From Nitrospiria bacterium (GTDB lineage: Bacteria > Nitrospirota > Nitrospiria > SBBL01 > JAADHI01): DNA of 33,365 nucleotides. This document shows, piece by piece, positions 21,590 to 33,351 of the stretch (positions are counted from its first letter, which is position 1; every line of letters starts with the position of its first letter). The position numbers and the translations under genes are program-made. The stretch is from positions 1 to 33,365 of the forward strand of contig JBHHXB010000001.1 in assembly GCA_046756825.1 (NCBI GenBank), read 5' to 3'. The notes beneath the pieces are model-generated. The model was not told the origin of the DNA and made no database searches. It saw only the letters and a program-made list of their open reading frames with translations.

Positions 21590-23368
21590 TTATCCTTCTT
21601 CTCCTTCACCTTCGTGGTCTTTTTTATACTGAATCGCTGCGGCACGGGCCCAGCTCAACAAACCAATCAGGACAAAAAAGACAACCGGGGGAACAACGTA
21701 AACCGTGGTCGGAATCGGCGGCTCCATCATCAGGTAATAAAATGTGGAAAGCGCCATACGGCCACCAACTTCACCGGCATCGCCATCCCAGGCGAAAAAG
21801 GTCATCGGGATGTTTTTGCCATTCACAAGCTGTGCCGACTTTTCTTTATCCTCGGTCAACAAGGCTCTTTTCATGATGACGCGCCAGCGGCCGTTTTCCC
21901 ATTTGGAATAAACCACTTTGACGTTTTTGTCATCCCGCACCTGAAGGGCATCGATGCCATGGCCTTCAATTTCCTCCACGGTGCCGTCGGACTGCCATTT
22001 CCAGATATCCACGCCGTGTTTTTCGTCGCCATGAATAAAGTAGGGCTTCAAGGGCGGCGCAAGGGTTTCCCAAACCTGCGGAAACTGAACCGCGATCCCG
22101 TCATTGTAGACACCGACGGGCTCCGGGTTCACGTCTTTTAAAGGTCCACGGGCACGGTCATTTTCGTGAGTGTATTGCGTGGTGTTGATCGCCGGAAAGG
22201 CCAACGACGACAGGCGTTTGAAATCATACTTGGCTTCGGCGCTTTCATCACGATGGCTTTCCGTCCGGTCATCCCACTCAAAAAGAATAACCACGTCCTT
22301 GTCGTTATAAAGGGAGCGGACCCGAATATCGTCCACCGTCCGGATAAAGTGACGCGGCGGCTGAATAATCTGGCTCGCCATCCCCACAAACTGAGGTTCC
22401 AGCACATCCCATTTTTCATCCGTCGGCGATTCCGGCAGTCCACCCTCTTCCACGAACTTGGACTTAATGACAAAGCCAATGGCCGGCCGACCTGTTTCAG
22501 GGTCCAACGGCCGTTTGACATCCGTCAGCGACATGACAAAGTTGGCGACGTGCCATCTTTCTTCCTCGCTCAACTCGTCAGCGAAAGACGGCATTGGCGT
22601 TCCATTCAACCCCGTAGAAATCTCTCTAAAAATATTTCTGGGATTATAGGGATCACGCCGGTTCCCTCTTAAATTCCACGGCTTTTGAAGATTCGCCGGA
22701 AAGATCGGGAAGGCCCAGTCATCCCGCTGCGTCAGGTTCCCGTTTCCGCGGCCTTCGACACCGTGACATTCCACACATTTTGCCTTGTTCATAAAAATGT
22801 CACGGCCCTGCTCAATGCTTTCCGGGGACGATGGAATCTGGGTACCGTAACTGATGACGGTAATTTCCTCATCGGGATCATCAAATTCCCGATCCTTCAC
22901 CAGTTCCTTCTTGACAAAGGCCACCACGTCTATCCGTTCCTGCTTGGAGAGAATGGCACCCCACGCCGGCATCACCGAACCGGGAAGCCCGTGGGTCACC
23001 GAGTTAAAAAGATCCTCATCCGTTGGCAACTCTCCGCTTCCCGTATGCCGAATCTTGAAAGTTCCGGCATTAAAGTTTCTGGGCTTGGTCGCCAGGCGAA
23101 TCGCGGAAGGGCCGTCACCCGCGCCATCCGGCCCGTGACACCACACACATTTACGAAAATAGACCCCCTTGCCGGCCTCGATATTACCGCCCAAGGTTCC
23201 CGGTTTGTAGGTACCGGGGGTGGGCTCCAGGGGCGCGGGGGCGACTTTGAAGATCTGCGCCTCTCCGGGGAGAGCAGATGCCAGCACCAAAGCGGCCGCC
23301 GCTCCCAGCCCGATGATTGCCCCTTTCAGGCCCTCAACAGCCTTTCTTTCTCTCTTTTCTTCAATCAT
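21590..23368 (-). CDS. Dihaem c-type cytochrome fused to an EB_dh/NxrC-like (DOMON-type) haem-b domain, with C-terminal TM anchor
   Basis: Lies in ORF 21590..23389, whose listed start is TTG; ATG 23368 follows GGGAG. N-terminal signal/anchor GAIIGLGAAAALVLASALPGEA. Two class-I haem sites, CVWCHGPDGAGDG..GSVMPAW and CVECHGVEGRGNG..GTPMPSF, are CcoP-like. The following ~300 aa carry VDIWKWQSDG, GRWRVIMKRAL and FFAWDGDAGEVGGRMALS, resembling the haem-b gamma-subunit domain of ethylbenzene dehydrogenase/Ser/Clr/Nxr enzymes. Terminal TM VVPPVVFFVLIGLLSWA. The domain call is at motif level only. Confidence 0.75.
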   Translation of the reverse strand: MIEEKRERKAVEGLKGAIIGLGAAAALVLASALPGEAQIFKVAPAPLEPTPGTYKPGTLGGNIEAGKGVYFRKCVWCHGPDGAGDGPSAIRLATKPRNFNAGTFKIRHTGSGELPTDEDLFNSVTHGLPGSVMPAWGAILSKQERIDVVAFVKKELVKDREFDDPDEEITVISYGTQIPSSPESIEQGRDIFMNKAKCVECHGVEGRGNGNLTQRDDWAFPIFPANLQKPWNLRGNRRDPYNPRNIFREISTGLNGTPMPSFADELSEEERWHVANFVMSLTDVKRPLDPETGRPAIGFVIKSKFVEEGGLPESPTDEKWDVLEPQFVGMASQIIQPPRHFIRTVDDIRVRSLYNDKDVVILFEWDDRTESHRDESAEAKYDFKRLSSLAFPAINTTQYTHENDRARGPLKDVNPEPVGVYNDGIAVQFPQVWETLAPPLKPYFIHGDEKHGVDIWKWQSDGTVEEIEGHGIDALQVRDDKNVKVVYSKWENGRWRVIMKRALLTEDKEKSAQLVNGKNIPMTFFAWDGDAGEVGGRMALSTFYYLMMEPPIPTTVYVVPPVVFFVLIGLLSWARAAAIQYKKDHEGEGEEG

Positions 23369-23433
23369 TATATTTATTCTCCCTTTCAAATCACATTCCA
23401 GTCAAATGGACTCGTAAAACGTTCCAAAAGAGA

Positions 23434-24435
23434 TCATCCCCATGTTCTTGGAAAGAATCCTGTATGCCAGTATTCAAAGATGATCACTTTCCAGATTTCG
23501 TTTGTCGTCAGATGCTTTTCCCAGGGCGGCATGGCCGAGGCCCAGGGGAAGGCTTCACGCGACAAATCCGGTCCACCTTTTGACACACGCCAGAACACAA
23601 AGGTCTCCTGTAACTGAGAGATGGTCCCAGGGTCGGCAAAGTTTGCTGGAATGGGGTTAAAGGCAAATGAAAAGGGGCCTTTTCCGTCGAGGTTGTCCCC
23701 ATGGCAGAAGAAGCAACCGGCGGTTCCAAAGAACACAACGCCCCCTTGCTGGACTTGTTGAAGAAACTTGGGCACATCACCTGTCCAGGCATTTCCACCA
23801 AAATATTGGGCTTCATCACCCACCTTCAGGTAGTTCCCGTCATCCCCAATCCGAAATGGATTTTCCGCAGTTTGAAGGTTCAATGTTTTTTTATGAACAT
23901 TGATACTTGCCGGCGGCGCCGGATGCACCGTCCTCAACTCGATCGGCTCTCCGAATTTCGGGAGCATCTGGTTGTAGGTTTGAAAGGCGATCAACCCCGG
24001 CACAATCAGGAAGGTCGCGTAACGCGAAATTTTCGCCGTTCCATGATCTTCCCGCAACATCACCGCAATGGGATGGGAAAATTCCTCCCACGAGGGTCTT
24101 GTAATGGAGCAATAAAGAAAGATCGCCACCGTACAGACTCCCATGTACATCGCCAGCAAGGTGAAAGGAATCGGCGGCCGCAAGATAACACGAAAACCGA
24201 CATAACAAATAATCCACAGCAGGGGCGCCTGGATGAGTTTCGGCAAGGGAATCCCCATTTTGTCCTTAATCAGCCATGCGGACAGAATTGCGAAGGTCAC
24301 AAGACCCACCTCGATCGCGACAAAGGTTCCGGCGTCGAAAGGACCGCCACCACCACCGGCCCAGGCAAACATCGGGACAGCCAGGATCAGTGCCAAGACC
24401 TGCGCAAACAAAGTCTTTGGTTTAAACTTACTCAT
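23434..24435 (-). CDS. Polytopic membrane protein with C-terminal monohaem cytochrome c domain
   Basis: 333 aa, AGGAGG upstream. The N-terminal ~170 aa hold about 4-5 hydrophobic helices. The C-terminal part has CFFCHGDNLDGKG ... SAMPPWEKHLTTNEIWKVIIFEYW, a class-I cytochrome c. Confidence 0.8.
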   Translation of the reverse strand: MSKFKPKTLFAQVLALILAVPMFAWAGGGGGPFDAGTFVAIEVGLVTFAILSAWLIKDKMGIPLPKLIQAPLLWIICYVGFRVILRPPIPFTLLAMYMGVCTVAIFLYCSITRPSWEEFSHPIAVMLREDHGTAKISRYATFLIVPGLIAFQTYNQMLPKFGEPIELRTVHPAPPASINVHKKTLNLQTAENPFRIGDDGNYLKVGDEAQYFGGNAWTGDVPKFLQQVQQGGVVFFGTAGCFFCHGDNLDGKGPFSFAFNPIPANFADPGTISQLQETFVFWRVSKGGPDLSREAFPWASAMPPWEKHLTTNEIWKVIIFEYWHTGFFPRTWG

Positions 24436-24466: not shown

Positions 24467-25747
24467 TTAGTTTAAGCCGATAAAGGTTGAATTTTCGATC
24501 CCTCTGTTCGTCGAAACCCGTGCAGACAGACCTCCCTCATCAAACATCGGCTTATTCCCGGCAAACGCCTCACCGGTTTTCGCTTTTGCCTCCGGTTTTT
24601 TAATGGGGCCTTCTTTTTCATTCGGAAGACGATCCATCCCATCGGCGAGAGCTGCGGCCTCATCCTGCGCAATCAAGTGATCCACAAGCACGTCCAGGCC
24701 GGATACCGTGAATTTGTGCTTAAAGTCCTTTATCATGTCATCCGCAAAACCCGGCACAATAAAGGCGCCCGGATCCATGATCGACTCAATGATGTATTCA
24801 CGCGGCGTCGTCGCATGGGCCTTTCCGGCCTTCACCGCCGCCTGATATTCGGGCGACTTGATACGGTTCGGCGCGTTCGTCCCTTCAATTAACAGAGGCC
24901 CTATAGCGCCGGTTTTGGCGACGGAAATACCGGGGATCTTATGACAGGCGTAACAGGTCATTTTCGTCACAATCTCCTCCGGCGATTCAGAACCCAGCGC
25001 CACAGGAGGTCCTGCCGGTTTTTCTTCTTCCACCGGCGCTTCCTCTCCCGCGCCAAGATCCTTACCCCAATAAGCCTCCCAGTCTTCCTTGGCGGTCCAC
25101 TTCGAGGGGTCGTCCCGCATTTGGAGAAAAGAGACAACCGCGACAATCTCCGTATCCACCAGTAGAATGGGCGGTTTGTTAATGATCGGCATCGGGCTGA
25201 CCGTATCGTTCGTTCCCTTCAGGCCAAAGCCTTCCACCACGAAGCAGTTCGGGCAGTACTCCGATTCGATCAAGTACTGTCCGCCCGTTTCGGCGTGAGG
25301 CACAATCCCCGAATCTTTTTCCCCATTTGCATGACGTTTCTTTGACTCCTCGTAGCGAACCTCCTTGATGCGCTCGTGAGAGCGCTGTTCCTCGCTGACC
25401 TGAAGCAATTTCTGAGGCTCCGTTTTCAAGGCAATCAGGTTCGGGCAACGATCCGCCTTCTGCTCCATAAAAAACCGATGACAAAGCGGACACTGCCCCT
25501 TACCGATCGGCCCTTCACCCTTTGCCAGCACGCCCAGCGGATCATGAGAACCGAAAATAATTTTCTCCCCCATTTCCTGCAGCATTTCGGGCGTGACCGC
25601 CGAAACGTCGATGGCTTCAGCCGCCTCCGGGGCGTCCCCTCGAATCTGCGGCAGCCAGTTGGTGTATGCCGCAAAAATCCCTAGAATCGTGCAGTACCAG
25701 AGGGCCACCTTAAGTACAATGCGTCCTGCTCCTTTTTTCTTAGCCAT
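24467..25747 (-). CDS. Membrane-anchored dihaem c-type cytochrome
   Basis: Lies in ORF 24467..25915. ATG 25747 is preceded by GAGGAGAAGG and gives MAKKKGAGRIVLKVALWYCTILGIFAAY (signal anchor). Haem sites CPLCH and CYACHKIPG, plus a CPNC pair. Confidence 0.8.
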   Translation of the reverse strand: MAKKKGAGRIVLKVALWYCTILGIFAAYTNWLPQIRGDAPEAAEAIDVSAVTPEMLQEMGEKIIFGSHDPLGVLAKGEGPIGKGQCPLCHRFFMEQKADRCPNLIALKTEPQKLLQVSEEQRSHERIKEVRYEESKKRHANGEKDSGIVPHAETGGQYLIESEYCPNCFVVEGFGLKGTNDTVSPMPIINKPPILLVDTEIVAVVSFLQMRDDPSKWTAKEDWEAYWGKDLGAGEEAPVEEEKPAGPPVALGSESPEEIVTKMTCYACHKIPGISVAKTGAIGPLLIEGTNAPNRIKSPEYQAAVKAGKAHATTPREYIIESIMDPGAFIVPGFADDMIKDFKHKFTVSGLDVLVDHLIAQDEAAALADGMDRLPNEKEGPIKKPEAKAKTGEAFAGNKPMFDEGGLSARVSTNRGIENSTFIGLN

Positions 25748-25829: not shown

Positions 25830-27764
25830 TCAGTGACTTCCCGCCGGCACAGCCTTGCCAGCGGCTGCGGCCGCTTCCGCTTCCACCTTCTTCTTGCCCG
25901 CGCCCGCAAGGGCACTCAGCCAGAAAACGAAGAGGAGCATCGTCCAGAACAGAAGCACATTGAGCGAGTTAATATTGCCCGCATAGCCGAGCGGATTTGT
26001 AAACGCCCACGGCGAATTGTCTCTCAGGATCTCATTGACATGCCAGTGAAGACGGACAGAGGAGCGCAGATAGCCCATCACCGCCATTGTCCAGGTAAAG
26101 GCCACGGCCAGCATAAACAGGGCGTAAGCCCCTCTCACAGACATCCTGCCCCAGCGAATTTCGCCGACCTGTTCCGCGCCTTTCAACATCTTCACATTCA
26201 CGGTCACACCGACAAAAAGAACTGTCAAGGTTGAAGCCACCTGGGGCACCGAAAGACCGATCCGGACATTGGCCGGAATAAAGTAGCCATAGACCCCCAG
26301 GAACAGAATATTGGCTTCCGCACCCAGAACCAGGAAGAATAAAAAGATATTCCCCTTCCAGGCCCAAGGCACCTTAAGATTAAGATTGCACCGCTGATAA
26401 ATAATAAAACAAACAACGGTTGTCGTAATCATTGTATTGATCGCTGTGTTTTTCGCCGACATCACCCCGTAGTTTCCGACAACGGGATGCTGCGCACCGC
26501 CCATCGCCTTCAACTCCGCCGGTGTCATCACCAGGGTATGCGGTGTCAACCAGGAGATGGTGGATACAACCAAGACCGCCAGCATGAATTTGAAATACGG
26601 ATAATATCTTTCAGAACCCGGCATACGGCCCATGGCCTGAAAAAGATAGTAGTTCACCGTGATAAACAGGGTCGCAATCATTGTGGCCTGCATAATAAAC
26701 ACCCAGGCCAGCAAACCGCCCATCAGGGTGATCCCCATCTGCTGCCGATATGCGTAAATTTCCCGCATCAGCCAATAACCCGCGAAGGGAAGCGGAATCA
26801 AGGCAAGAATCCCCATAAACATGGCGATGTAACTCATCCAGTCATAGTGCCCTTTTTCCTCAGGGGTCTTGGCTGCAAGAAACTTAAATGCAGAGTAGGC
26901 CGCAACAACACCGCCGCCAAAAGCCGCATTCCCCAAAATACGATGAATCACGATGGGCACCATCAGCGGGTTGTGCATGACCTTCCATATATCCCCCAGA
27001 AAGCGGCCCTGCGCATCCACCCCGGCCGGCGACATCATAAAGCTGACCCAGGTATTCGCCATCACCATCAGCACGATACCAACGGCATTCAACACAGTAC
27101 CCAATGCAAGATGGCTCCATTTCCAGTCGCCGTCGCCATCGTTCATGGCATCCCAGCCATAGTAATAGACGTACAACACGCCGCTCTCCAAAATAAAGAG
27201 CAAGGCGTAAATATGCATCACAGGCCTAAAGATCCCCGATAAATACCGGAAAAAGCCCGGATAAAGGGCAAGAAACGAAAATATTAAGATCCCGCCCAAA
27301 ATGGCCGTCACAGAGTAGGCCGTCAAACTGATCTTCATCATTTCATGGGCCAGATCGTCAAACTTTTTCCCCGCCTTCTGATCTTTCCCAAACTGAATAA
27401 TTCCGATCAGCTCCATAACCCAGACAAACATGGGAACCGCCAAAACAAAGCTTCCAAAATACAAATGCTGCTGATTTGCAATCCAGATAATTGTTCGACT
27501 TTGAAAGTCGCCATAAGAACCATAATCATCCGGATAAACAAGCTCACCCGCGGGAGGGCCGGAAACGATTCCGAACTCGCCCTCTTCCTTGTAAAAAACG
27601 TCTTTCGCTTTTTCTGGTTCTGCTTCTCCTTCCTCCGCCACAGCCGCCTCTTCCTGCGCCATCACAACGGCAGGGGCGAACGGAAGAAGGACGAGCATCC
27701 CAATCATGCTCAGCAGGAGCCACGCTCCGACCTTCTTTTTGCTGTCTCTAAATAGATTTAACAT
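25830..27764 (-). CDS. Cytochrome bd-like oxidase subunit I homologue (CydA-like, paralogue 1)
   Basis: 644 aa, AAGGAGGA upstream. Polytopic. WIANQQHLYFGSFVLAVPMFVWVMELIG matches the first CydA helix with its haem-ligand His. NTWVSFMMSPAGVD matches the CydA W-M-Q-x-P-x-G block, followed by IHRIL. It has an extra N-terminal TM plus an acidic linker. No canonical Q-loop or GRQPW block was seen. Confidence 0.85.
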   Translation of the reverse strand: MLNLFRDSKKKVGAWLLLSMIGMLVLLPFAPAVVMAQEEAAVAEEGEAEPEKAKDVFYKEEGEFGIVSGPPAGELVYPDDYGSYGDFQSRTIIWIANQQHLYFGSFVLAVPMFVWVMELIGIIQFGKDQKAGKKFDDLAHEMMKISLTAYSVTAILGGILIFSFLALYPGFFRYLSGIFRPVMHIYALLFILESGVLYVYYYGWDAMNDGDGDWKWSHLALGTVLNAVGIVLMVMANTWVSFMMSPAGVDAQGRFLGDIWKVMHNPLMVPIVIHRILGNAAFGGGVVAAYSAFKFLAAKTPEEKGHYDWMSYIAMFMGILALIPLPFAGYWLMREIYAYRQQMGITLMGGLLAWVFIMQATMIATLFITVNYYLFQAMGRMPGSERYYPYFKFMLAVLVVSTISWLTPHTLVMTPAELKAMGGAQHPVVGNYGVMSAKNTAINTMITTTVVCFIIYQRCNLNLKVPWAWKGNIFLFFLVLGAEANILFLGVYGYFIPANVRIGLSVPQVASTLTVLFVGVTVNVKMLKGAEQVGEIRWGRMSVRGAYALFMLAVAFTWTMAVMGYLRSSVRLHWHVNEILRDNSPWAFTNPLGYAGNINSLNVLLFWTMLLFVFWLSALAGAGKKKVEAEAAAAAGKAVPAGSH

Positions 27765-27790
27765 TAAGCTTTCCTCCTTAAGGAAGTTTT

Positions 27791-27816
27791 AAAGAAAAGA
27801 CTGCCAAAAAGCAGTC
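27791..27816 (-). promoter_or_regulatory. Short hairpin plus U-tract between mini-ORF and CydA-like gene (possible attenuator or processing site)
   Basis: Minus strand reads GACTGC-tttttg-GCAGTC followed by TTTTCTTT. The stem is only 6 bp. Confidence 0.3.
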
Positions 27817-27832
27817 AAGGTTTTTGCCAACC

Positions 27833-27991
27833 CTAATTGAGGCCATAGAAGTAGTCGAGGTTTTGCGCCGGCCCCATCAAAACCCAATTCAAAAAAAGGT
27901 AATAGTAGAGTGATGTTCCAGCGAACATAATCACACCCCACACAATTTTCTGGCCGATACCGACCTTTTCCTGTGCTTGCTCATCTGACAT
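27833..27991 (-). CDS. Single-TM mini-protein (52 aa), candidate small subunit
   Basis: Below the track's 60-aa cutoff. ATG 27991 is preceded by AAAGGGGCAGATAA. Product MSDEQAQEKVGIGQKIVWGVIMFAGTSLYYYLFLNWVLMGPAQNLDYFYGLN has one clear TM helix. Same strand, 69 nt upstream of the CydA-like gene. Confidence 0.45.
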   Translation of the reverse strand: MSDEQAQEKVGIGQKIVWGVIMFAGTSLYYYLFLNWVLMGPAQNLDYFYGLN

Positions 27992-28064
27992 TTATCTGCC
28001 CCTTTATTTTTAATCAGCTCAGGTTACAAGTAAGCTTACAACTCAACTACATCAACGCTTGAAT

Positions 28065-28181
28065 CTAATGAATAAATCCAGGCGGCGCATGCATCGAATA
28101 CCAGCTAGCCCAGCATAAAAATGCTACGGACAGCCAGAATAATTTTTTACCAATATTTGCTTTTGGCCTATCTTCCGCCAT
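28065..28181 (-). CDS. Mini-protein (38 aa) with short hydrophobic segment, candidate small subunit
   Basis: ATG 28181 is preceded by TAAGGGGGGTTCTCGTC. Product MAEDRPKANIGKKLFWLSVAFLCWASWYSMHAPPGFIH. It is the first ORF after the predicted transcription start. Confidence 0.4.
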   Translation of the reverse strand: MAEDRPKANIGKKLFWLSVAFLCWASWYSMHAPPGFIH

Positions 28182-28237
28182 GACGAGAACCCCCCTTAAT
28201 ACTGTTGGCTACACTTTTCCGGTGTTGAAATGACGGG

Positions 28238-28266
28238 ACTATAGCCCAAATGATTTGCCTTGTCAA
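28238..28266 (-). promoter_or_regulatory. Sigma70-type promoter of the bd-like/cytochrome c operon
   Basis: Minus strand reads GGC-TTGACA (28266-28261), a 17-nt spacer, then TATAGT (28243-28238). Confidence 0.55.
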
Positions 28267-28380
28267 GCCCAAACACACCCGGCAAAACCCTGGTCAAGGC
28301 TTGACTTCATTTAGTCCGTTATGGTTATAGTAATTAATATTTTTTAACTTGAGGAATCAGGGAAAAGGGAGAAGTTACAG

Positions 28381-28524
28381 ATGAAGCTACCAAAGAAACA
28401 GGAAGACGCGCCTTATTATTCTCATAAGAATTCGCCTCTTTTTGATCTCTTCATTATTATCGGTCTTATTTTTAACGGCTTGTTCGTTATCTTCTTCCTT
28501 TTGTACTGGCTGGAACTGGTCTAA
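28381..28524 (+). CDS. Single-TM mini-protein (47 aa), divergent from the operon
   Basis: ATG 28381 is preceded by AAGGGAGAAG. Product MKLPKKQEDAPYYSHKNSPLFDLFIIIGLIFNGLFVIFFLLYWLELV. A possible promoter lies upstream: TTGACT 28301-06, 19-nt spacer, TATAGT 28326-31. Confidence 0.35.
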   Translation: MKLPKKQEDAPYYSHKNSPLFDLFIIIGLIFNGLFVIFFLLYWLELV

Positions 28525-28534
28525 AACCCTTTTG

Positions 28535-28559
28535 CTGTAAAATTTCTGAAATTTTACAG
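28535..28559. repeat. Perfect 11-bp inverted repeat between convergent genes (weak terminator candidate)
   Basis: CTGTAAAATTT-ctg-AAATTTTACAG. The stem is AT-rich and no clear U-tract follows on either side. Confidence 0.35.
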
Positions 28560-28586
28560 ACCACGCTTCTCATCATTCACCACCCG

Positions 28587-29420
28587 CTATTGCTCTTCTG
28601 TTTTTGCGCACCTGAATCCAACCGCTTCATAGCGGTACCCCGGGATCATTTTCAATCTTCCCGTTGTTCTGCCCGAGTAGAGCGAATCCCGCCACGACGA
28701 CCCCCTCAACACCTTCATTTCTCCTTGTTCAGGCCCTTGGGGGTTTTTTGAAGGGCCCTGCGCATAATATTGATCGTCGTACCAGTCCTGCACCCACTCA
28801 CGGACATTTCCCGCCATGTCATAAAGACCGTAGGGGCTTTTATCCTGCTCATAGGACCCCACAGTCATCGTAAATACGCCCCGATCATCTTTTCCCTTAA
28901 AATTAGCAAAGGTCGGCTCAAATTTTTCCGTCCAGGGCCAAGACAATCCCTCGGTGCCTCGTGCGGCTTTTTCCCATTCCGCCTCGGTCGGCAAACGCAG
29001 GCCCGCCCACTCGCAATACGCGTAAGCATCCAGCCAGCTCACGTAAATCGCGGGTTGGTTGGGGTGATTAAAAAAGTGAATATCCTTCACGTAACGATTC
29101 AGGGGTTTTCGATGACCGGTCGTCGCGACAAACTGATCATATTGATGCTGGGTGACTTCATACTGGTGGATCGCAAAAGCATCAAGATACACCGCACGCT
29201 TGGGTTGCTCATCCGTACCCCCGTCTTCGGCCCCCATGATAAATTCCCCGGCCGGGATCACAATCATCGGATTGTCTCGCGGCGGCTCGGAAAAGTTAAT
29301 GGGGTTTTCGGCGACCACAGCCGTCCTGTCCTTTGGTTGAGAGGAAATAATCATGAAAATCCCCACCCCCACCAAAAATAAAATGAAAAGAACATAAACC
29401 CTGATAAATGTCTTATCCAT
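28587..29420 (-). CDS. Membrane-anchored formylglycine-generating-enzyme (FGE/SUMF1) family domain protein
   Basis: 277 aa. N-terminal TM VYVLFILFLVGVGIFMIIS. FGE-sulfatase motifs RLPTEAEWEKAARG, YGLYDMAGNVREW, RGSSW and GFRCA. Confidence 0.85.
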   Translation of the reverse strand: MDKTFIRVYVLFILFLVGVGIFMIISSQPKDRTAVVAENPINFSEPPRDNPMIVIPAGEFIMGAEDGGTDEQPKRAVYLDAFAIHQYEVTQHQYDQFVATTGHRKPLNRYVKDIHFFNHPNQPAIYVSWLDAYAYCEWAGLRLPTEAEWEKAARGTEGLSWPWTEKFEPTFANFKGKDDRGVFTMTVGSYEQDKSPYGLYDMAGNVREWVQDWYDDQYYAQGPSKNPQGPEQGEMKVLRGSSWRDSLYSGRTTGRLKMIPGYRYEAVGFRCAKTEEQ

Positions 29421-29524
29421 ATCTTTATCTTGACCTCACAATCACTTGAAAATCAGGTTAGCATAAAGCAAGAAATGGAATCAAAACCCCCTTCACGACT
29501 TTATGCGTCGGGCTTGATCACGCC

Positions 29525-29553
29525 TTGACAGCCAAGCGGCACCCCGCTATTAT
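29525..29553 (+). promoter_or_regulatory. Sigma70-type promoter of the second CydA-like gene
   Basis: TTGACA (29525-30), a 17-nt spacer, then TATTAT (29548-53), 40 nt upstream of ATG 29593. Confidence 0.55.
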
Positions 29554-29592
29554 CCCCAATGACTTATTACGGCGACCAACACGGATTACCTC

Positions 29593-31479
29593 ATGAATCA
29601 CATACAAAGCCGCGCATGCTTTTACATGACCTTTTTACTCACAGCCCTCATCCTTTTCACAACCGCCGCCCCGGGTAAAGACGCACTCGCTTCGTCCCCG
29701 TCATCCGGCATTTCAGAAGACATCTATTTTAAAACACCGGGCACCATTTCAGGCCCGCACGCGCCGGAATTGAATTACCCGGAAAGCTACGACGGAAGCG
29801 GAAAGCTCGACAACCGCTCGATCCTGTGGGTGCTCATCCAGCAGCATTTTTTCCTGGGGAGTTTCATCCTTGGGGTGCCCATGATGGCCTGGATGCTGGA
29901 AATTTTCAGTTATTTTCGACGAAAGTCCAATCCGGCCAGCGCGGAAAAACATGACAGTCTGGCCCACGAATTCATGCGGATCGGGCTTCCGTTTTATCCG
30001 CTCACGATTGTCTTCGGGTTTGCATTGCTCGGTGCATTCATTTTTCTCTACAGTGAATTTTCGAGATACATGTCAACGATCTTTCGCCCGGTTCTTTATT
30101 TTTATGTGGTCGTCTTCTTTTTAGAGAATGTATTGCTCTACGCCTACACCAAAACCTGGGATCGCTGGAAAACAGGGATCGCCAAGTGGAAACATCTGGG
30201 GCTCGGGGCGGCGACCTGCTTCAACGGCCTCGTCATCATCTATCTTGCGAACGCCTTGATGGCCTTTATGATGTCACCGGCCGGCGTTGATTCGGAAGGC
30301 CATTATCTCGGCAACATCTGGAACGCCGTCAACACGCCGCTCTGGAACCCCCTCAACATTCACCGGATTCTGGCCAGCATCATGTTCAGCGGCGCGGTTA
30401 TCGCGGCCTACGCCGCCTATCAAATGCTGACGACCCGCGACCCGGCAAAGCGCGCGCACTACGACTGGATGGGGCACGTCTCCATCATGATCGCCATCGT
30501 CAATCTTTTTATCCTCCCCTTCGCGGGCTACTGGTTCGCGAAAGAGATCTTTATTTACCGGCAGCGGATGGGCGTGACCCTCATGGGCGGTAAACTGAGC
30601 TGGCCCTTTATCATGCAGGCCATGTTGATCGGGCTCATTTTCATGACCGTCACCTATTATCTTTGGCAGGGCACCGCGCGCATGCGCGGCTCGGAGCGCT
30701 ACCGGCATCTGGTTAAATACACCATGTTTATCCTGGCCACCGCCTTTTTGATTTGGGCCACACCGCACACGATTCCCGCGAGTCAGGGCGAATTCAAGGC
30801 GATGGGCGGCTCACAGCATCCGATTGTCGGCTACTACGGCACCATGGCCGCAAAGAACACCGCCATTAACACCATGATTTTGAGCTTCGGGCTGTGCTAC
30901 ATCATCTTTCACCGATGCAACAAAGAAATCACCGTCTCGTGGTCCCGCTGGGGGAATACCGTCATGGCGCTCATGTTCATCGGCGCGGAGGCCTTCGTTA
31001 TCTTCGTCGGCGTCTACGGTTTTTTCATCCCGGCCAATGTCCGCGTCAAGCTGGCCTTTCCGCAGTTCATGGTAGCCATCAGCGCCCTGACGGGCGGCAT
31101 GCTGCTGAACATCGCCATGCTGAGGAAATCAAAAATCATCGGCCCTGTGCAATGGGGGAAACTCCCGACTTCCGGGGCCTTCGCCCTTTTTTCACTGGCC
31201 GTGTTCATCTCGACCACAATGGTTTTAATGGGCTACATTCGTTCCTCGGTGCGTCTGGACTGGCACGTCACGGAAATCCTGAAGGATACGACGCCTTGGG
31301 CGGGCACCCCTTCCCTGAGCTACGCCATGGGCATGGTGGTGTTTAATGTCGTGGTTTTCTGGGCGATCAGCACAGTCATCTTCCGAATCGGAAATCGCAA
31401 GACCACGAGAACCTTTTCGATGAGATCAAATCCCGTCACGTCGAGCGGCACTTCGCCCGAAGAATCACCCCTGCCGTAA
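29593..31479 (+). CDS. Cytochrome bd-like oxidase subunit I homologue (CydA-like, paralogue 2)
   Basis: 628 aa. It can be aligned by eye with 25830..27764 over essentially its whole length. Identical blocks include FMMSPAGVD, IHRIL, HYDWM, LPFAGYW, GSERY, TPHT, KAMGG.QHP, AKNTAINTMI, FIPANVR and RSSVRL.WHV. Confidence 0.85.
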   Translation: MNHIQSRACFYMTFLLTALILFTTAAPGKDALASSPSSGISEDIYFKTPGTISGPHAPELNYPESYDGSGKLDNRSILWVLIQQHFFLGSFILGVPMMAWMLEIFSYFRRKSNPASAEKHDSLAHEFMRIGLPFYPLTIVFGFALLGAFIFLYSEFSRYMSTIFRPVLYFYVVVFFLENVLLYAYTKTWDRWKTGIAKWKHLGLGAATCFNGLVIIYLANALMAFMMSPAGVDSEGHYLGNIWNAVNTPLWNPLNIHRILASIMFSGAVIAAYAAYQMLTTRDPAKRAHYDWMGHVSIMIAIVNLFILPFAGYWFAKEIFIYRQRMGVTLMGGKLSWPFIMQAMLIGLIFMTVTYYLWQGTARMRGSERYRHLVKYTMFILATAFLIWATPHTIPASQGEFKAMGGSQHPIVGYYGTMAAKNTAINTMILSFGLCYIIFHRCNKEITVSWSRWGNTVMALMFIGAEAFVIFVGVYGFFIPANVRVKLAFPQFMVAISALTGGMLLNIAMLRKSKIIGPVQWGKLPTSGAFALFSLAVFISTTMVLMGYIRSSVRLDWHVTEILKDTTPWAGTPSLSYAMGMVVFNVVVFWAISTVIFRIGNRKTTRTFSMRSNPVTSSGTSPEESPLP

Positions 31480-31504: not shown

Positions 31505-32284
31505 CTAATCGCTCTGGTTTTCCTCAACAATTTTTGGAACGACTTCGGCCGCCTTTCCGCAGAGCGTCACATCAGCTAAACCGGAGAGCGCGGGTGCGGG
31601 ATTGATTTCCACGACAAAGGCTCCTGAGTCCTTCGCCATCGACGCGAAAGAGGCCGCGGGCTGAACCACTGCGGAAGTGCCGATGACCAGCATCAGGTCA
31701 CAGGCCCGGCATTCGGCGATACTTCGCGTTAAATGCCCGCTGTCAATCGCCTCCCCAAACCAGACAATGTCCGGCCTGAGCAGGTCGGCACAATGCGCGC
31801 ACGTTGGAAGAGGCGGCAAATCCAAGTCGCGATTCTCCATTTTCTGGCCGCAGCCCATGCAACGCATCCGCCAAATATCACCGTGCAGCATAATCATGTT
31901 CCGGCTGCCCGCCAAGGCATGCAAACCGTCCACATTTTGCGTGATCAACAAATATCGCGCCGCCCGCGCCTCAAGCCGCGCCAGGGCCTCATGCGCGGCG
32001 TTGGTTTTTTTTGAGGCAATCAAACCACGCCGCCACTGATACCAGGACCAAACCAGCGTCGGATCGCGCGCAAAGGCCCCGGGCGTCGCCAAATCCTCCG
32101 CCCGGTGGGTTTTCCACAGCCCCTCATCCCCTCGAAAGGTCGGGATGCCGCTTTCAGCGGAAACCCCCGCGCCGGTTAAAACAACAAGGGATTTTGAAGC
32201 AAAAACACGTCGTCGCACATCGTCAATGGAAGCCTCCAAATCTCCTCCGCATTTCCCGGTCCCCGCGTCCTCATCATTGCGCAT
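31505..32284 (-). CDS. cobB: NAD-dependent protein deacylase, Sir2 family
   Basis: 259 aa. GAGVSAESGIPTFRG, QNVDGLH and the Zn motif CxxC...CxxC (CMGC..CAHC). Confidence 0.9.
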   Translation of the reverse strand: MRNDEDAGTGKCGGDLEASIDDVRRRVFASKSLVVLTGAGVSAESGIPTFRGDEGLWKTHRAEDLATPGAFARDPTLVWSWYQWRRGLIASKKTNAAHEALARLEARAARYLLITQNVDGLHALAGSRNMIMLHGDIWRMRCMGCGQKMENRDLDLPPLPTCAHCADLLRPDIVWFGEAIDSGHLTRSIAECRACDLMLVIGTSAVVQPAASFASMAKDSGAFVVEINPAPALSGLADVTLCGKAAEVVPKIVEENQSD

Positions 32285-32302
32285 GACGTCCTCAACAACG
32301 AC

Positions 32303-32330
32303 TTGACAGAATTAAATTAAGCGGTACGAT
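32303..32330 (+). promoter_or_regulatory. Candidate sigma70 promoter of an orphan short transcript
   Basis: TTGACA (32303-08), a 16-nt spacer, then TACGAT (32325-30). The -10 is imperfect. Confidence 0.35.
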
Positions 32331-32336
32331 TTCTAT

Positions 32337-32428
32337 GTTCATTGTTATTTCTCCTTAGCACCAAGTGAACAAGAAGCAGACAGCACGAACCCCCTTCGGA
32401 CAGCAGACCGGAGGGGGTTTTTGCTTTG
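32337..32428 (+). ncRNA. Candidate small RNA (~90 nt) defined by promoter plus terminator
   Basis: The region lies between a plus-strand promoter-like element and a strong plus-oriented intrinsic terminator. It has no plausible ORF (only a 7-codon ATG frame). It sits between two minus-strand genes. Confidence 0.3.
32390..32428 (+). terminator. Rho-independent terminator, plus-strand orientation
   Basis: CCCCCTTCGG (32390-99) pairs with CCGGAGGGGG (32408-17): 10 bp with one G-U, 8-nt loop. It is followed by TTTTTGCTTTG. The minus-strand side lacks a U-tract. Confidence 0.65.
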
Positions 32429-32481
32429 TCTCAATTGGGGTAACGAGAAAAAAGAAATGCGAAAAGGCTGAACCCATCCCC

Positions 32482-33042
32482 TCAGCGCACGGGGTTTTCG
32501 GGGCCGCGGCCACGGAAGGCATCCACAAACTCCAGCACCTTTTTTTTATCCAGTCCCTTCAGGCGCAGGATGGCCCGCCAGGCGGTCACGATGACGGGGT
32601 GTTCCTTATCGTCGCGCGTCACCATCAACATGCCATCCCACTGGCCGAGATATTTGTGCGTCAAGTCCTTCAGCCACTTCACCTCTTCCGCCGACAAGGC
32701 GGAGCGGTCAAAATACAGCACGATGTTGCCGTGCTCCAAATTATGCACCAGAAGCTCGGGCCGCGTCTCGCTCGCCTCGTAAACACTCGGGGGCAGCCAG
32801 CGCGGATCGTGCGGGCCGGAGGTCGGGGGATCCGTTTTATAAAAGGAGCGTGTTCCCTCGCGGATGTGTCCGTGGCCTTCGTTTTCATAAAACTCGACCC
32901 CTTCCGGCACATCCGGCGGCATGGGGGGGCCTTGCTGGGCCCCAGCCCCGGAAGAAAACCACAACAGGGCCGCCAGAATCAAAAAAGCAAAATAGCCTTT
33001 CTTTTGAGTAATTCTTGAAATGGTGTCTATCCGATTTTGCAT
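32482..33042 (-). CDS. DUF3105-family secreted/membrane-anchored protein
   Basis: Lies in ORF 32482..33075, whose listed start is TTG. ATG 33042 is preceded by AAGGGGA and gives MQNRIDTISRITQKKGYFAFLILAALLWFSSGAGA. PPTSGPH...LVHNLEHGNIVLYF matches the DUF3105 signature. ATG 33066 is an alternative start. Confidence 0.7.
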   Translation of the reverse strand: MQNRIDTISRITQKKGYFAFLILAALLWFSSGAGAQQGPPMPPDVPEGVEFYENEGHGHIREGTRSFYKTDPPTSGPHDPRWLPPSVYEASETRPELLVHNLEHGNIVLYFDRSALSAEEVKWLKDLTHKYLGQWDGMLMVTRDDKEHPVIVTAWRAILRLKGLDKKKVLEFVDAFRGRGPENPVR

Positions 33043-33081
33043 GTTGAATCCCCTTCGGCCAAACATATTTCCCAAATAAAG

Positions 33082-33351
33082 TTAAGACACTTCGCAAACG
33101 CGCTTGATCAAGGCCGACACCGCAATCTTGTCCCCGCCGATTTCTTCAATCTCCGCCTTGGCCTTGGCGACAGAGGGAACGGCCGTGTCGGGCAATATGA
33201 CGGACTCCCCCGCCTTTCGGGCTCGCGCCTCCACAATCACGCGCACCACAGCCCGTGACGAAACCGGCAGCGCCTCCAGTTCCCGAAGCGCCCCGGTCGT
33301 CCATTCCATTTCGGGCTCGGGAATCTGCAAGGTGACCTCCCCTTGAATCAT
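33082..33351 (-). CDS. Small protein with PCP_red-like (protochlorophyllide-reductase 57-kDa C-terminal-type) domain; may be N-terminally longer
   Basis: 89 aa. EWTTGALRELEALPVSSRAVVRVIVEARARKAGESVI resembles the W-x-x-E-A-x-x-x-L-x-x-I-P-x-x-V-R...A...G pattern of that domain. The frame stays open upstream to the window edge (..SCQA before the Met), so the start is uncertain. Confidence 0.4.
   Translation of the reverse strand: MIQGEVTLQIPEPEMEWTTGALRELEALPVSSRAVVRVIVEARARKAGESVILPDTAVPSVAKAKAEIEEIGGDKIAVSALIKRVCEVS

Follow-up and report, generated by a model that had tools for sequence, protein, structure and literature searches.

Two OR-N2-type cytochrome bd-like paralogues, one with a cytochrome operon, in a marine Nitrospirota genome

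A cluster of four genes in the order bd-like_3, cytochrome c, cytochrome c and alt_NxrC_2 was previously described in Nitrospira moscoviensis, and every Nitrospira genome has a duplicate of its first gene, bd-like_4, only a few genes from the cluster (Mundinger et al. 2019, PMC6606698). The four-gene bd-like module is likewise known from Nitrospina and from anammox bacteria (Lucker et al. 2013, PMC3578206). Within the cytochrome bd superfamily, operons of the OR-N2 subfamily hold several cytochromes c together with an ebdC homologue (Murali et al. 2021, bioRxiv 10.1101/2021.01.16.426971). Here we describe a stretch of 33,365 nucleotides from a Nitrospiria bacterium (positions 1 to 33,365, forward strand, of contig JBHHXB010000001.1 in assembly GCA_046756825.1; henceforth referred to as ‘the window’), which carries the genes of two diverged bd-like membrane proteins, henceforth A and B. 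We regard it as almost certain that A and B belong to the OR-N2 subfamily as a pair of ancient paralogues; A is the predicted orthologue of Nitrospira bd-like_3 and B, by synteny, that of bd-like_4. The paralogue pair as such is already described in the literature (bd-like_3/bd-like_4; OR-N2), and the window provides a new example of it in an uncharacterised family. The best explanation overall, to which we give a probability of roughly 0.6, is that of an OR-N2 pair serving an oxidase fed with electrons from the periplasm. The two genes and their parts are as follows (TM, transmembrane helix; ORF, open reading frame):

25830..27764, minus strand: protein A, an OR-N2-type cytochrome bd-like membrane protein of 644 aa; intact ORF
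29593..31479, plus strand: protein B, a second OR-N2-type bd-like protein of 628 aa, solitary and divergent from A; intact ORF
27501..27764, minus strand: residues 1-88 of A, with a signal-anchor or signal-peptide helix (7-29), an acidic linker and the conserved periplasmic stretch VSGPPAGELVYPDDYG
26865..27500, minus strand: residues 89-300 of A, the CydA-homologous core TM1-TM5 (hhalign to E. coli CydA; codons checked)
25833..26864, minus strand: residues 301-644 of A, the OR-N-specific C-terminal part TM6-TM13, without detectable similarity to E. coli CydA or CydB
26538-26540 (H409), 26487-26489 (H426) and 26040-26042 (H575), minus strand: invariant residues of the C-terminal part of A, which also include M435 and S568

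The bd-type core and the quinol site

Both proteins belong to the cytochrome bd superfamily as subunit I members and have no Q-loop for quinol binding. By BLASTP, A and B are 44% identical (65% positives) over 586 aligned residues with 5 gap positions. The first-pass annotation, made from the sequence alone, had claimed that the two proteins align end to end and share eight His motifs, and both statements hold: the two ORFs are intact and all eight motifs (QQH, LAHE, KW(S/K)H, IHRIL, HYDWM, TPHT, QHP(V/I)VG and RL(H/D)WHV) fall within the alignment. The Pfam profile PF01654 (Cyt_bd_oxida_I) matched A with 75.3 bits and B with 60.6 bits (cut-off 26.2 bits), and in both proteins the match was confined to profile positions 3-240 of 418, i.e. 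to the N-terminal half. When a profile of 80 relatives was used as the hhalign query against E. coli CydA, only residues 95-297 of A aligned, with residues 17-214 of CydA. In this alignment H100, E193, H218 and H274 of A are paired with H19, E107, H126 and H186, respectively, and Y186, an invariant Tyr in the family, occupies the position of Glu99. The counterparts in B of the ligands of His19 type (TM1) and His186 type (TM5) are H85 and H257, which are invariant in a family set of 212 sequences (154 A-type and 58 B-type) obtained by protein searches.

The C-terminal 345 residues of A gave no significant hhalign match to E. coli CydA or CydB (probability <1%), and the equivalents of M393 and E445 in A are those of the manual alignment of Murali et al. 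(Suppl. Table 6), our own hhalign being unable to align the C-terminal half. A comparison of the N-terminal half with the middle and C-terminal parts found no internal repeat. The same alignments bear out the earlier remark that the long Q-loop and the GRQPW block of quinol-oxidising CydA are not recognisable in either paralogue. The Q-loop with Lys252 and Glu257 has no counterpart in A or B, its place being taken by a short loop and additional helices, and the profile and hhalign alignments end at E. coli residue 214; the gap between TM6 and the next helix is about 30 residues in A against about 150 in E. coli CydA; and the hhalign comparison with E. coli CydA gave no counterpart of the GRQPW (EYGRQPW) block. 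No CydB gene was found in the window, and the best PF02322 score in the genome was 18.6 bits against a cut-off of 35.6.

AlphaFold2 (AF2) models of the two proteins had a predicted local distance difference test score (pLDDT) of 82.9 and a predicted template-modelling score (pTM) of 0.83 for A, and 84.1 and 0.86 for B. Both contain 14 helices in the same layout, namely an N-terminal helix (A 7-29, B 2-25), some 50-60 residues with two short strands, and 13 further long helices. A Foldseek search of the Protein Data Bank (PDB) with the model of A returned ten CydA chains at E <= 7e-4, the best at 1.8e-8 (bd-II, bd-I), with CydB chains ranking after the CydA chains. Only bd chains were significant, and one nitric oxide reductase (NOR) chain had an E value of 1.4. 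The template-modelling score on the target was 0.46-0.60 with large root-mean-square deviations, so that the global fit is loose. By sequence, the PDB held one weak CydA match for A (9r2g, E 0.0026) and none for B; no OR-N-type chain was found there by sequence search, and a literature search found no bd-like oxidase structure.

An extra N-terminal module had also been noted at the outset, and it was recovered in full: the helix is followed, ahead of TM1, by a two-strand segment that holds the conserved SGPxAP..YP..Y stretch in both A and B, and, with His19 of E. coli CydA corresponding to H100 of A, the N-terminal extension amounts to 81 residues. Y81, R90 and W94 of A are invariant in the family. 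The N-terminal helix itself may be a cleaved signal peptide or an uncleaved anchor, with candidate cleavage sites between VMA and QE in A and between ALA and SS in B. Overall, A and B resemble canonical CydA (E. coli bd-I and bd-II, Geobacillus, Mycobacterium; PDB 6rko, 7oy2, 5doq, 7nkz) in the TM1-TM5 core and in the His19, Glu107, His126 and His186 equivalents. In contrast to canonical CydA, they lack the Q-loop, Lys252/Glu257 and GRQPW, have Tyr for Glu99 and Ser for Glu445, lie in a genome without CydB, and add four TM helices along with the N-terminal helix and extension. Despite the missing quinol-binding loop, homologues of A and B are listed in public annotation as ‘cytochrome ubiquinol oxidase subunit I’, and NCBIfam has no dedicated model for either protein.

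Placement in the OR-N2 subfamily was based on the residue table of Murali et al., on operon context and on our own tree, in which the Nitrospira paralogues were identified by context. A carries the OR-N2 residue pattern as H100, Y186, E193, H218, H274, M435/N439, S568 and W574, at spacings identical to, or within 2 residues of, those of the OR-N2 reference row TKS59798.1 (Murali Suppl. Table 6), and B carries it as H85, Y171, E178, H201, H257, M418, S551 and W557. With the OR-N2 proteins of Murali et al. (2021), A and B thus share 14 TM helices, the lack of a quinol site and the residue row H19/H, E99/Y, E107/E, H126/H, H186/H, M393/M(N), E445/S and W441/W.

Conserved histidines and their predicted sites

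The proposal made from the sequence alone was that the two paralogues share an invariant His set larger than the haem ligands of CydA require. Within the aligned region, B shares 8 of the 11 His of A, compared with 44% identity overall (binomial p = 0.053), and the A/B pair alone is therefore only suggestive of a His excess. Across the 212 family sequences, six of the 12 His of A (H100, H218, H274, H409, H426 and H575) are at least 98% conserved, and His is the most enriched residue type among the invariant positions (6/12 against 126/644 overall; Fisher p = 0.017). The invariant set stands for these six, whereas other positions in the proposed motifs vary: H140 (LAHE) is Y in most A-type and R, H or K in B-type sequences, H573 is usually F, D or N in relatives, and H306 (HYDWM) is H or Y. 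H184 and H264 are kept in the A clade only, and the B clade has a conserved His of its own, H295 of B. Wider representatives (29-50% identity) mostly retain the six invariant His. H409, H426 and H575 are retained in most other OR-N2 relatives, some divergent ones lacking H409 or H426, and the one OR-N1-type protein examined (bd-like_1 of the complete Nitrospira-family genome G050) lacks H409, H426 and E193 and retains H575.

A ends in PAGSH (last codon 25833-25835), and its C-terminal His stands at the last aligned column in 109 of the 154 A-type proteins. Nitrospira bd-like_3 likewise ends in PAGSH and Nitrospira bd-like_1 in PAGSK, the tail being a conserved cytoplasmic motif.

Topology was assigned from the AlphaFold helix positions and the positive-inside rule: with the N-terminus inside, Lys and Arg number 25 on the cytoplasmic against 11 on the periplasmic side in A, and 28 against 18 in B. 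On this assignment H100, H264, H274, H409, H426, H573 and H575 of A are predicted to lie on the periplasmic side, H184 in the outer part of TM3, and H140 (LAHE), H218 (KWxH) and H306 (HYDWM) at cytoplasmic helix ends. H100 and H274 would accordingly be periplasmic, as in solved bd oxidases. H409 stands at the end of TM8 (TPHT) and H575 after TM12 (RLxWHV); H426 belongs to an invariant GGxQHPxxG loop whose pLDDT is about 41-45 in both AF2 models. Being at cytoplasmic helix ends, the His of LAHE, KWxH and HYDWM would be unable to join a site beside periplasmic-side haems.

H100 and H274 are the predicted haem ligands and H218 the predicted proton-channel residue (canonical His126). The equivalents of H19, H126 and H186 are listed for OR-N2 in Murali Suppl. 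Table 6, and H409, H426 and H575 lie outside its columns (bioRxiv 10.1101/2021.01.16.426971). Both paralogues do, then, carry more conserved His than the canonical haem ligands need, the excess over the three canonical residues consisting of H409, H426 and H575; on the predicted topology these are the only unexplained, OR-N2-typical His on the periplasmic side.

Orthology, neighbourhood and host genome

The genes surrounding A and B in the window are as follows:

24467..25747, minus strand: membrane-anchored dihaem cytochrome c with two CxxCH motifs; likely start M57 of a 482-aa ORF
23434..24435, minus strand: 333-aa protein with four TM helices and a C-terminal monohaem cytochrome c
21590..23389, minus strand: 599-aa alt-NxrC-like protein with a signal or anchor helix, two haem-c domains, an EB_dh haem-b domain and a C-terminal TM
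27833..27991, minus strand: 52-aa single-helix mini-ORF upstream of A
28065..28181, minus strand: 38-aa single-helix mini-ORF upstream of A
28587..29420, minus strand: FGE-sulfatase-family protein between A and B (Pfam PF03781, 201.6 bits), a syntenic marker
31505-33351, minus strand: Sir2-family deacetylase, DUF3105 and PCP_red-domain genes after B, in the same order in the closest relatives

A and the three cytochrome genes downstream of it show the same four-gene order as loci in Nitrospira, Nitrospinaceae and Pseudomonadota. The 599-aa protein matched Pfam Cytochrome_CBB3, Cytochrom_C and EB_dh, and NCBIfam DMSO_red_II_gam with 95.5 bits, below cut-off. The arrangement expected of OR-N2 operons, with several cytochromes c and an EB_dh (ebdC) gene, is found at A and not at B, which sits between the FGE-sulfatase and Sir2 genes and has no cytochrome c or EB_dh gene of its own. 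Both mini-ORFs are kept in the closest relative (L006), and their position and pattern are also kept upstream of bd-like_3 in two Nitrospira loci (L005, L027), the motifs being an IGKK-hydrophobic helix and, at the C-terminus of the 52-aa product, a Q(N/G)LDY(F/W)Y-like sequence that L005 and L027 share; the mini-ORFs may encode small subunits resembling CydX or CydS. A Nitrospinaceae metagenome-assembled genome (MAG), OFTM379, carries two complete four-gene modules (bd-like, cytochrome c, cytochrome c, EB_dh) in tandem (L022 10001-21002), and the bd-like proteins of the two modules fall into separate deep clades of OR-N2.

A is 60-64% identical to Nitrospira bd-like_3. In a maximum-likelihood tree with Shimodaira-Hasegawa-like approximate likelihood-ratio test (SH-aLRT) support, A grouped with Nitrospira bd-like_3 at 96, and A, B, bd-like_3 and bd-like_4 formed a clade at 100 that nests within single-copy Nitrospinaceae and Pseudomonadota genes having the same four-gene module. 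B grouped with bd-like_4 at 78 only, and a single ancient duplication in Nitrospiria is therefore supported mainly by synteny. In Candidatus (Ca.) Nitrospira bockiana and in G050 the order runs from PCP_red through bd-like_4 and an FGE-sulfatase to bd-like_3, cytochrome c, cytochrome c and alt_NxrC. The window agrees with the Nitrospira arrangement in gene content and order, in the FGE-sulfatase between the paralogues, in PCP_red beyond them (PCP_red being also near bd-like_4 in N. bockiana) and in the upstream mini-ORFs. It differs in that B is divergent from A, and so inverted relative to it, whereas the two are co-directional in Nitrospira, and in that no NxrA-sized molybdoenzyme was found in the window genome. 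The FGE-sulfatase family stands between bd-like_4 and bd-like_3 in N. bockiana, G050 and the closest relatives of the window genome, with one or two copies in Nitrospira; because the same family holds the same place there, this link is conserved across the class.

The window genome (2.36 Mb in 309 contigs, 94% complete) is that of a marine Troglogloeales, Ca. Manganitrophaceae-like member of the Nitrospirota, the nearest named relatives of B coming from marine Nitrospiria or Nitrospirota bacterium MAGs, Ca. Troglogloeales and Ca. Manganitrophus. The TO_1 cluster of Ca. Manganitrophus and Ca. Troglogloeales, present in most Troglogloeales, pairs a bd-like protein with a cytochrome b located in the periplasm, as is the case at A (Yu et al. 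2022, PMC9040806). Going by the description in that paper and by gene content, and not by the sequences of strain Mn1, the A operon probably corresponds to TO_1. A third bd-like gene, on contig C88 (L034 58-8853), encodes an 804-aa protein with a cytochrome c fused at its C-terminus; two genes for MrpD-like subunits of antiporter type precede it, and genes for a dihaem c, a monohaem c and a dihaem-c/EB_dh protein follow. This is the TO_2 arrangement, which is reported to be restricted to Ca. Manganitrophaceae (PMC9040806). A-, B- and C-type copies were present in 25/25 genomes of the order searched, the window genome included.

In the tree, the C88 copy grouped with Nitrospira bd-like_2 with support of 100, bd-like_2 having been identified in G050 by its Rieske/cytochrome b neighbourhood. 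A was considered as an orthologue of NIDE0901/bd-like_2 and rejected, because bd-like_2 of Nitrospira shares 39% identity with A and falls with the C88 copy in the tree. The bd-like_2 protein is of the NIDE0901 type, for which copper ligands have been proposed (PMC6606698, PMC8115632). Since the C88 copy is the one that groups with bd-like_2, the published argument for a CuB-like site concerns its clade and not that of A and B; the argument from genome papers on nitrite oxidisers to which the first-pass annotation referred was made for another paralogue (PMC6606698). At the motifs of H426 and H575, bd-like_2 and the C88 copy have the doublets HHP and HWH.

In the 94%-complete genome, neither COX1 (PF00115) nor a full-length CydA was found, and no CydB scored above cut-off. 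Six matches to the molybdopterin family PF00384 were present, none of them NxrA-sized, the two largest being ActB/QrcB-like and NuoG/Fdh-like. As no NxrA-sized molybdoenzyme was found, the bd-like module appears to work without nitrite oxidoreductase in this lineage.

Proposed function and competing explanations

We propose that A, the two mini-TM proteins, the dihaem c, the monohaem c and the dihaem-c/EB_dh haem-b protein would form a membrane complex, in which five c-haems and one b-haem would carry electrons from the periplasm to A. O2 would most likely be reduced at the bd-type high-spin haem site of the A complex, making it a cytochrome c:O2 oxidoreductase, with protons supplied by a cytoplasmic path through H218 and E193. 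Taken by itself, we judge this O2-reductase role to be an even bet. B would most likely be an alternative catalytic subunit for the partners of A, or else a second subunit in an A-B pair. H409, H426 and H575 would most likely stand in for the lost Glu445/GRQPW region, as ligands or through contacts with propionates, or else hold an additional cofactor.

Several points weigh against an OR-N2 pair with a periplasm-fed oxidase. Besides the low support for B with bd-like_4, the proximity of B to A is confined to Nitrospira and to some of the window genome's relatives; in other Troglogloeales, Ca. Manganitrophus GAC4 included, B has no A-type gene within 10 kb. With Glu99 and Glu445 replaced by Tyr186 and Ser568, the active site of A and B differs from that of every tested bd oxidase. 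The argument for O2 reduction relies on homology and on the absence of other oxidases, because no OR-N1 or OR-N2 member has been purified or solved, and a missing oxidase could sit in a gap, the genome being 94% complete in 309 contigs.

The loss of Glu99 and Glu445, canonical residues of the O2 site, would also suit a different role, in which the A complex is not a terminal oxidase and works as an electron-routing module like alternative complex III, directing electrons towards quinone for reverse electron transport. The literature has proposed this role for the same cluster, both in Nitrospina and in N. moscoviensis. It also reports conservation of the cluster in anammox bacteria, which are strict anaerobes, and this speaks against O2 as an obligatory substrate. 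We nevertheless find it rather unlikely: A and B have neither the Q-loop nor any other recognisable quinone site, the His19-type ligand, E193 and H218 are strictly kept, as would fit a proton-consuming catalytic haem, the genome has no other recognisable O2 reductase beyond its three bd-like copies, and none of its PF00384 matches has the size of NxrA. It is improbable, too, that B has degenerated into a structural partner of A, comparable to CydB, in a CydAA'-type heterodimer with A alone catalytic. In favour of this, both genes are present in each of the 25 genomes of the order that were searched, they lie close together in Nitrospira and the closest relatives, no cytochrome c or EB_dh gene accompanies B, evolution is faster in the B clade (mean pairwise identity 0.61, compared with 0.725 in the A clade), and pairing of CydAA' type has been proposed for OR-N proteins (PMC10839748, PMC12342949). 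The pairing proposed in the literature is, however, of OR-N1 with OR-N2 and not of two OR-N2 copies, B is unlinked to A in many Troglogloeales genomes, and B keeps all marker residues (H85, Y171, E178, H201, H257, M418, H392, H409 and H558 in B numbering), unlike the ‘b-type’ partners of Murali et al., which lose the catalytic ones. The residues of B suggest an alternative catalytic subunit more than a CydB-like partner that has degenerated.

The three additional His invite comparison with haem-copper oxidases, namely that H409, H426 and H575, perhaps with Tyr186, bind a CuB-like copper beside the high-spin haem on a bd scaffold. All three are at least 98% conserved in the family set and retained in most other OR-N2 relatives, all three are predicted on the periplasmic side, where bd haems sit, the position of Glu99 is taken by an invariant Tyr, and the GGxQHPxxG loop of H426 is poorly placed by AF2, as expected of a loop that depends on a cofactor or partner. 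Copper ligands have been proposed for the related bd-like_2/NIDE0901 (PMC6606698), and HHP and HWH doublets stand at the same motifs in bd-like_2 and the C88 copy. That proposal, however, concerns a different paralogue and is itself a prediction, and some divergent relatives lack H409 or H426. In haem-copper oxidases the His pattern is H...HH, mid-helix. The candidate His of A, by contrast, lie in loops or at helix ends, A and B have no relation in fold or sequence to COX1, PF00115 is absent from the genome, and Foldseek was significant for bd chains only. A site of this kind is, in our estimate, quite unlikely, and slightly more doubtful still is its fuller form, in which the periplasmic His triad and Tyr186 would make a copper site by the His100-ligated haem and A and B would be isoforms sharing one cytochrome set. 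If true, a copper triad would mean that a bd scaffold had converged on haem-copper chemistry. The three His, Tyr186 and the unplaced loop are equally compatible with an extra metal or haem site and with replacement ligands or propionate contacts for the third haem.

Overall, what had been observed from the sequence was confirmed, and its interpretation was partly upheld: the bd-like nature, the additional His, the N-terminal extension and the missing Q-loop stand, three of the eight motifs are placed on the cytoplasmic side, and the CuB argument belongs to another paralogue. Existing knowledge of the OR-N2 bd-like family is unchanged by the pair in the window. Most Nitrospira and manganese-oxidising Nitrospirota lack a recognised haem-copper oxidase, and bd-like proteins are their standing terminal-oxidase candidates. 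The window provides a clean example, with both paralogues intact together with partner cytochromes and mini-ORFs, in a lineage where no NxrA-sized enzyme was found, and it narrows the puzzle of ‘too many histidines’ to three predicted periplasmic His and a Tyr at the Glu99 position.

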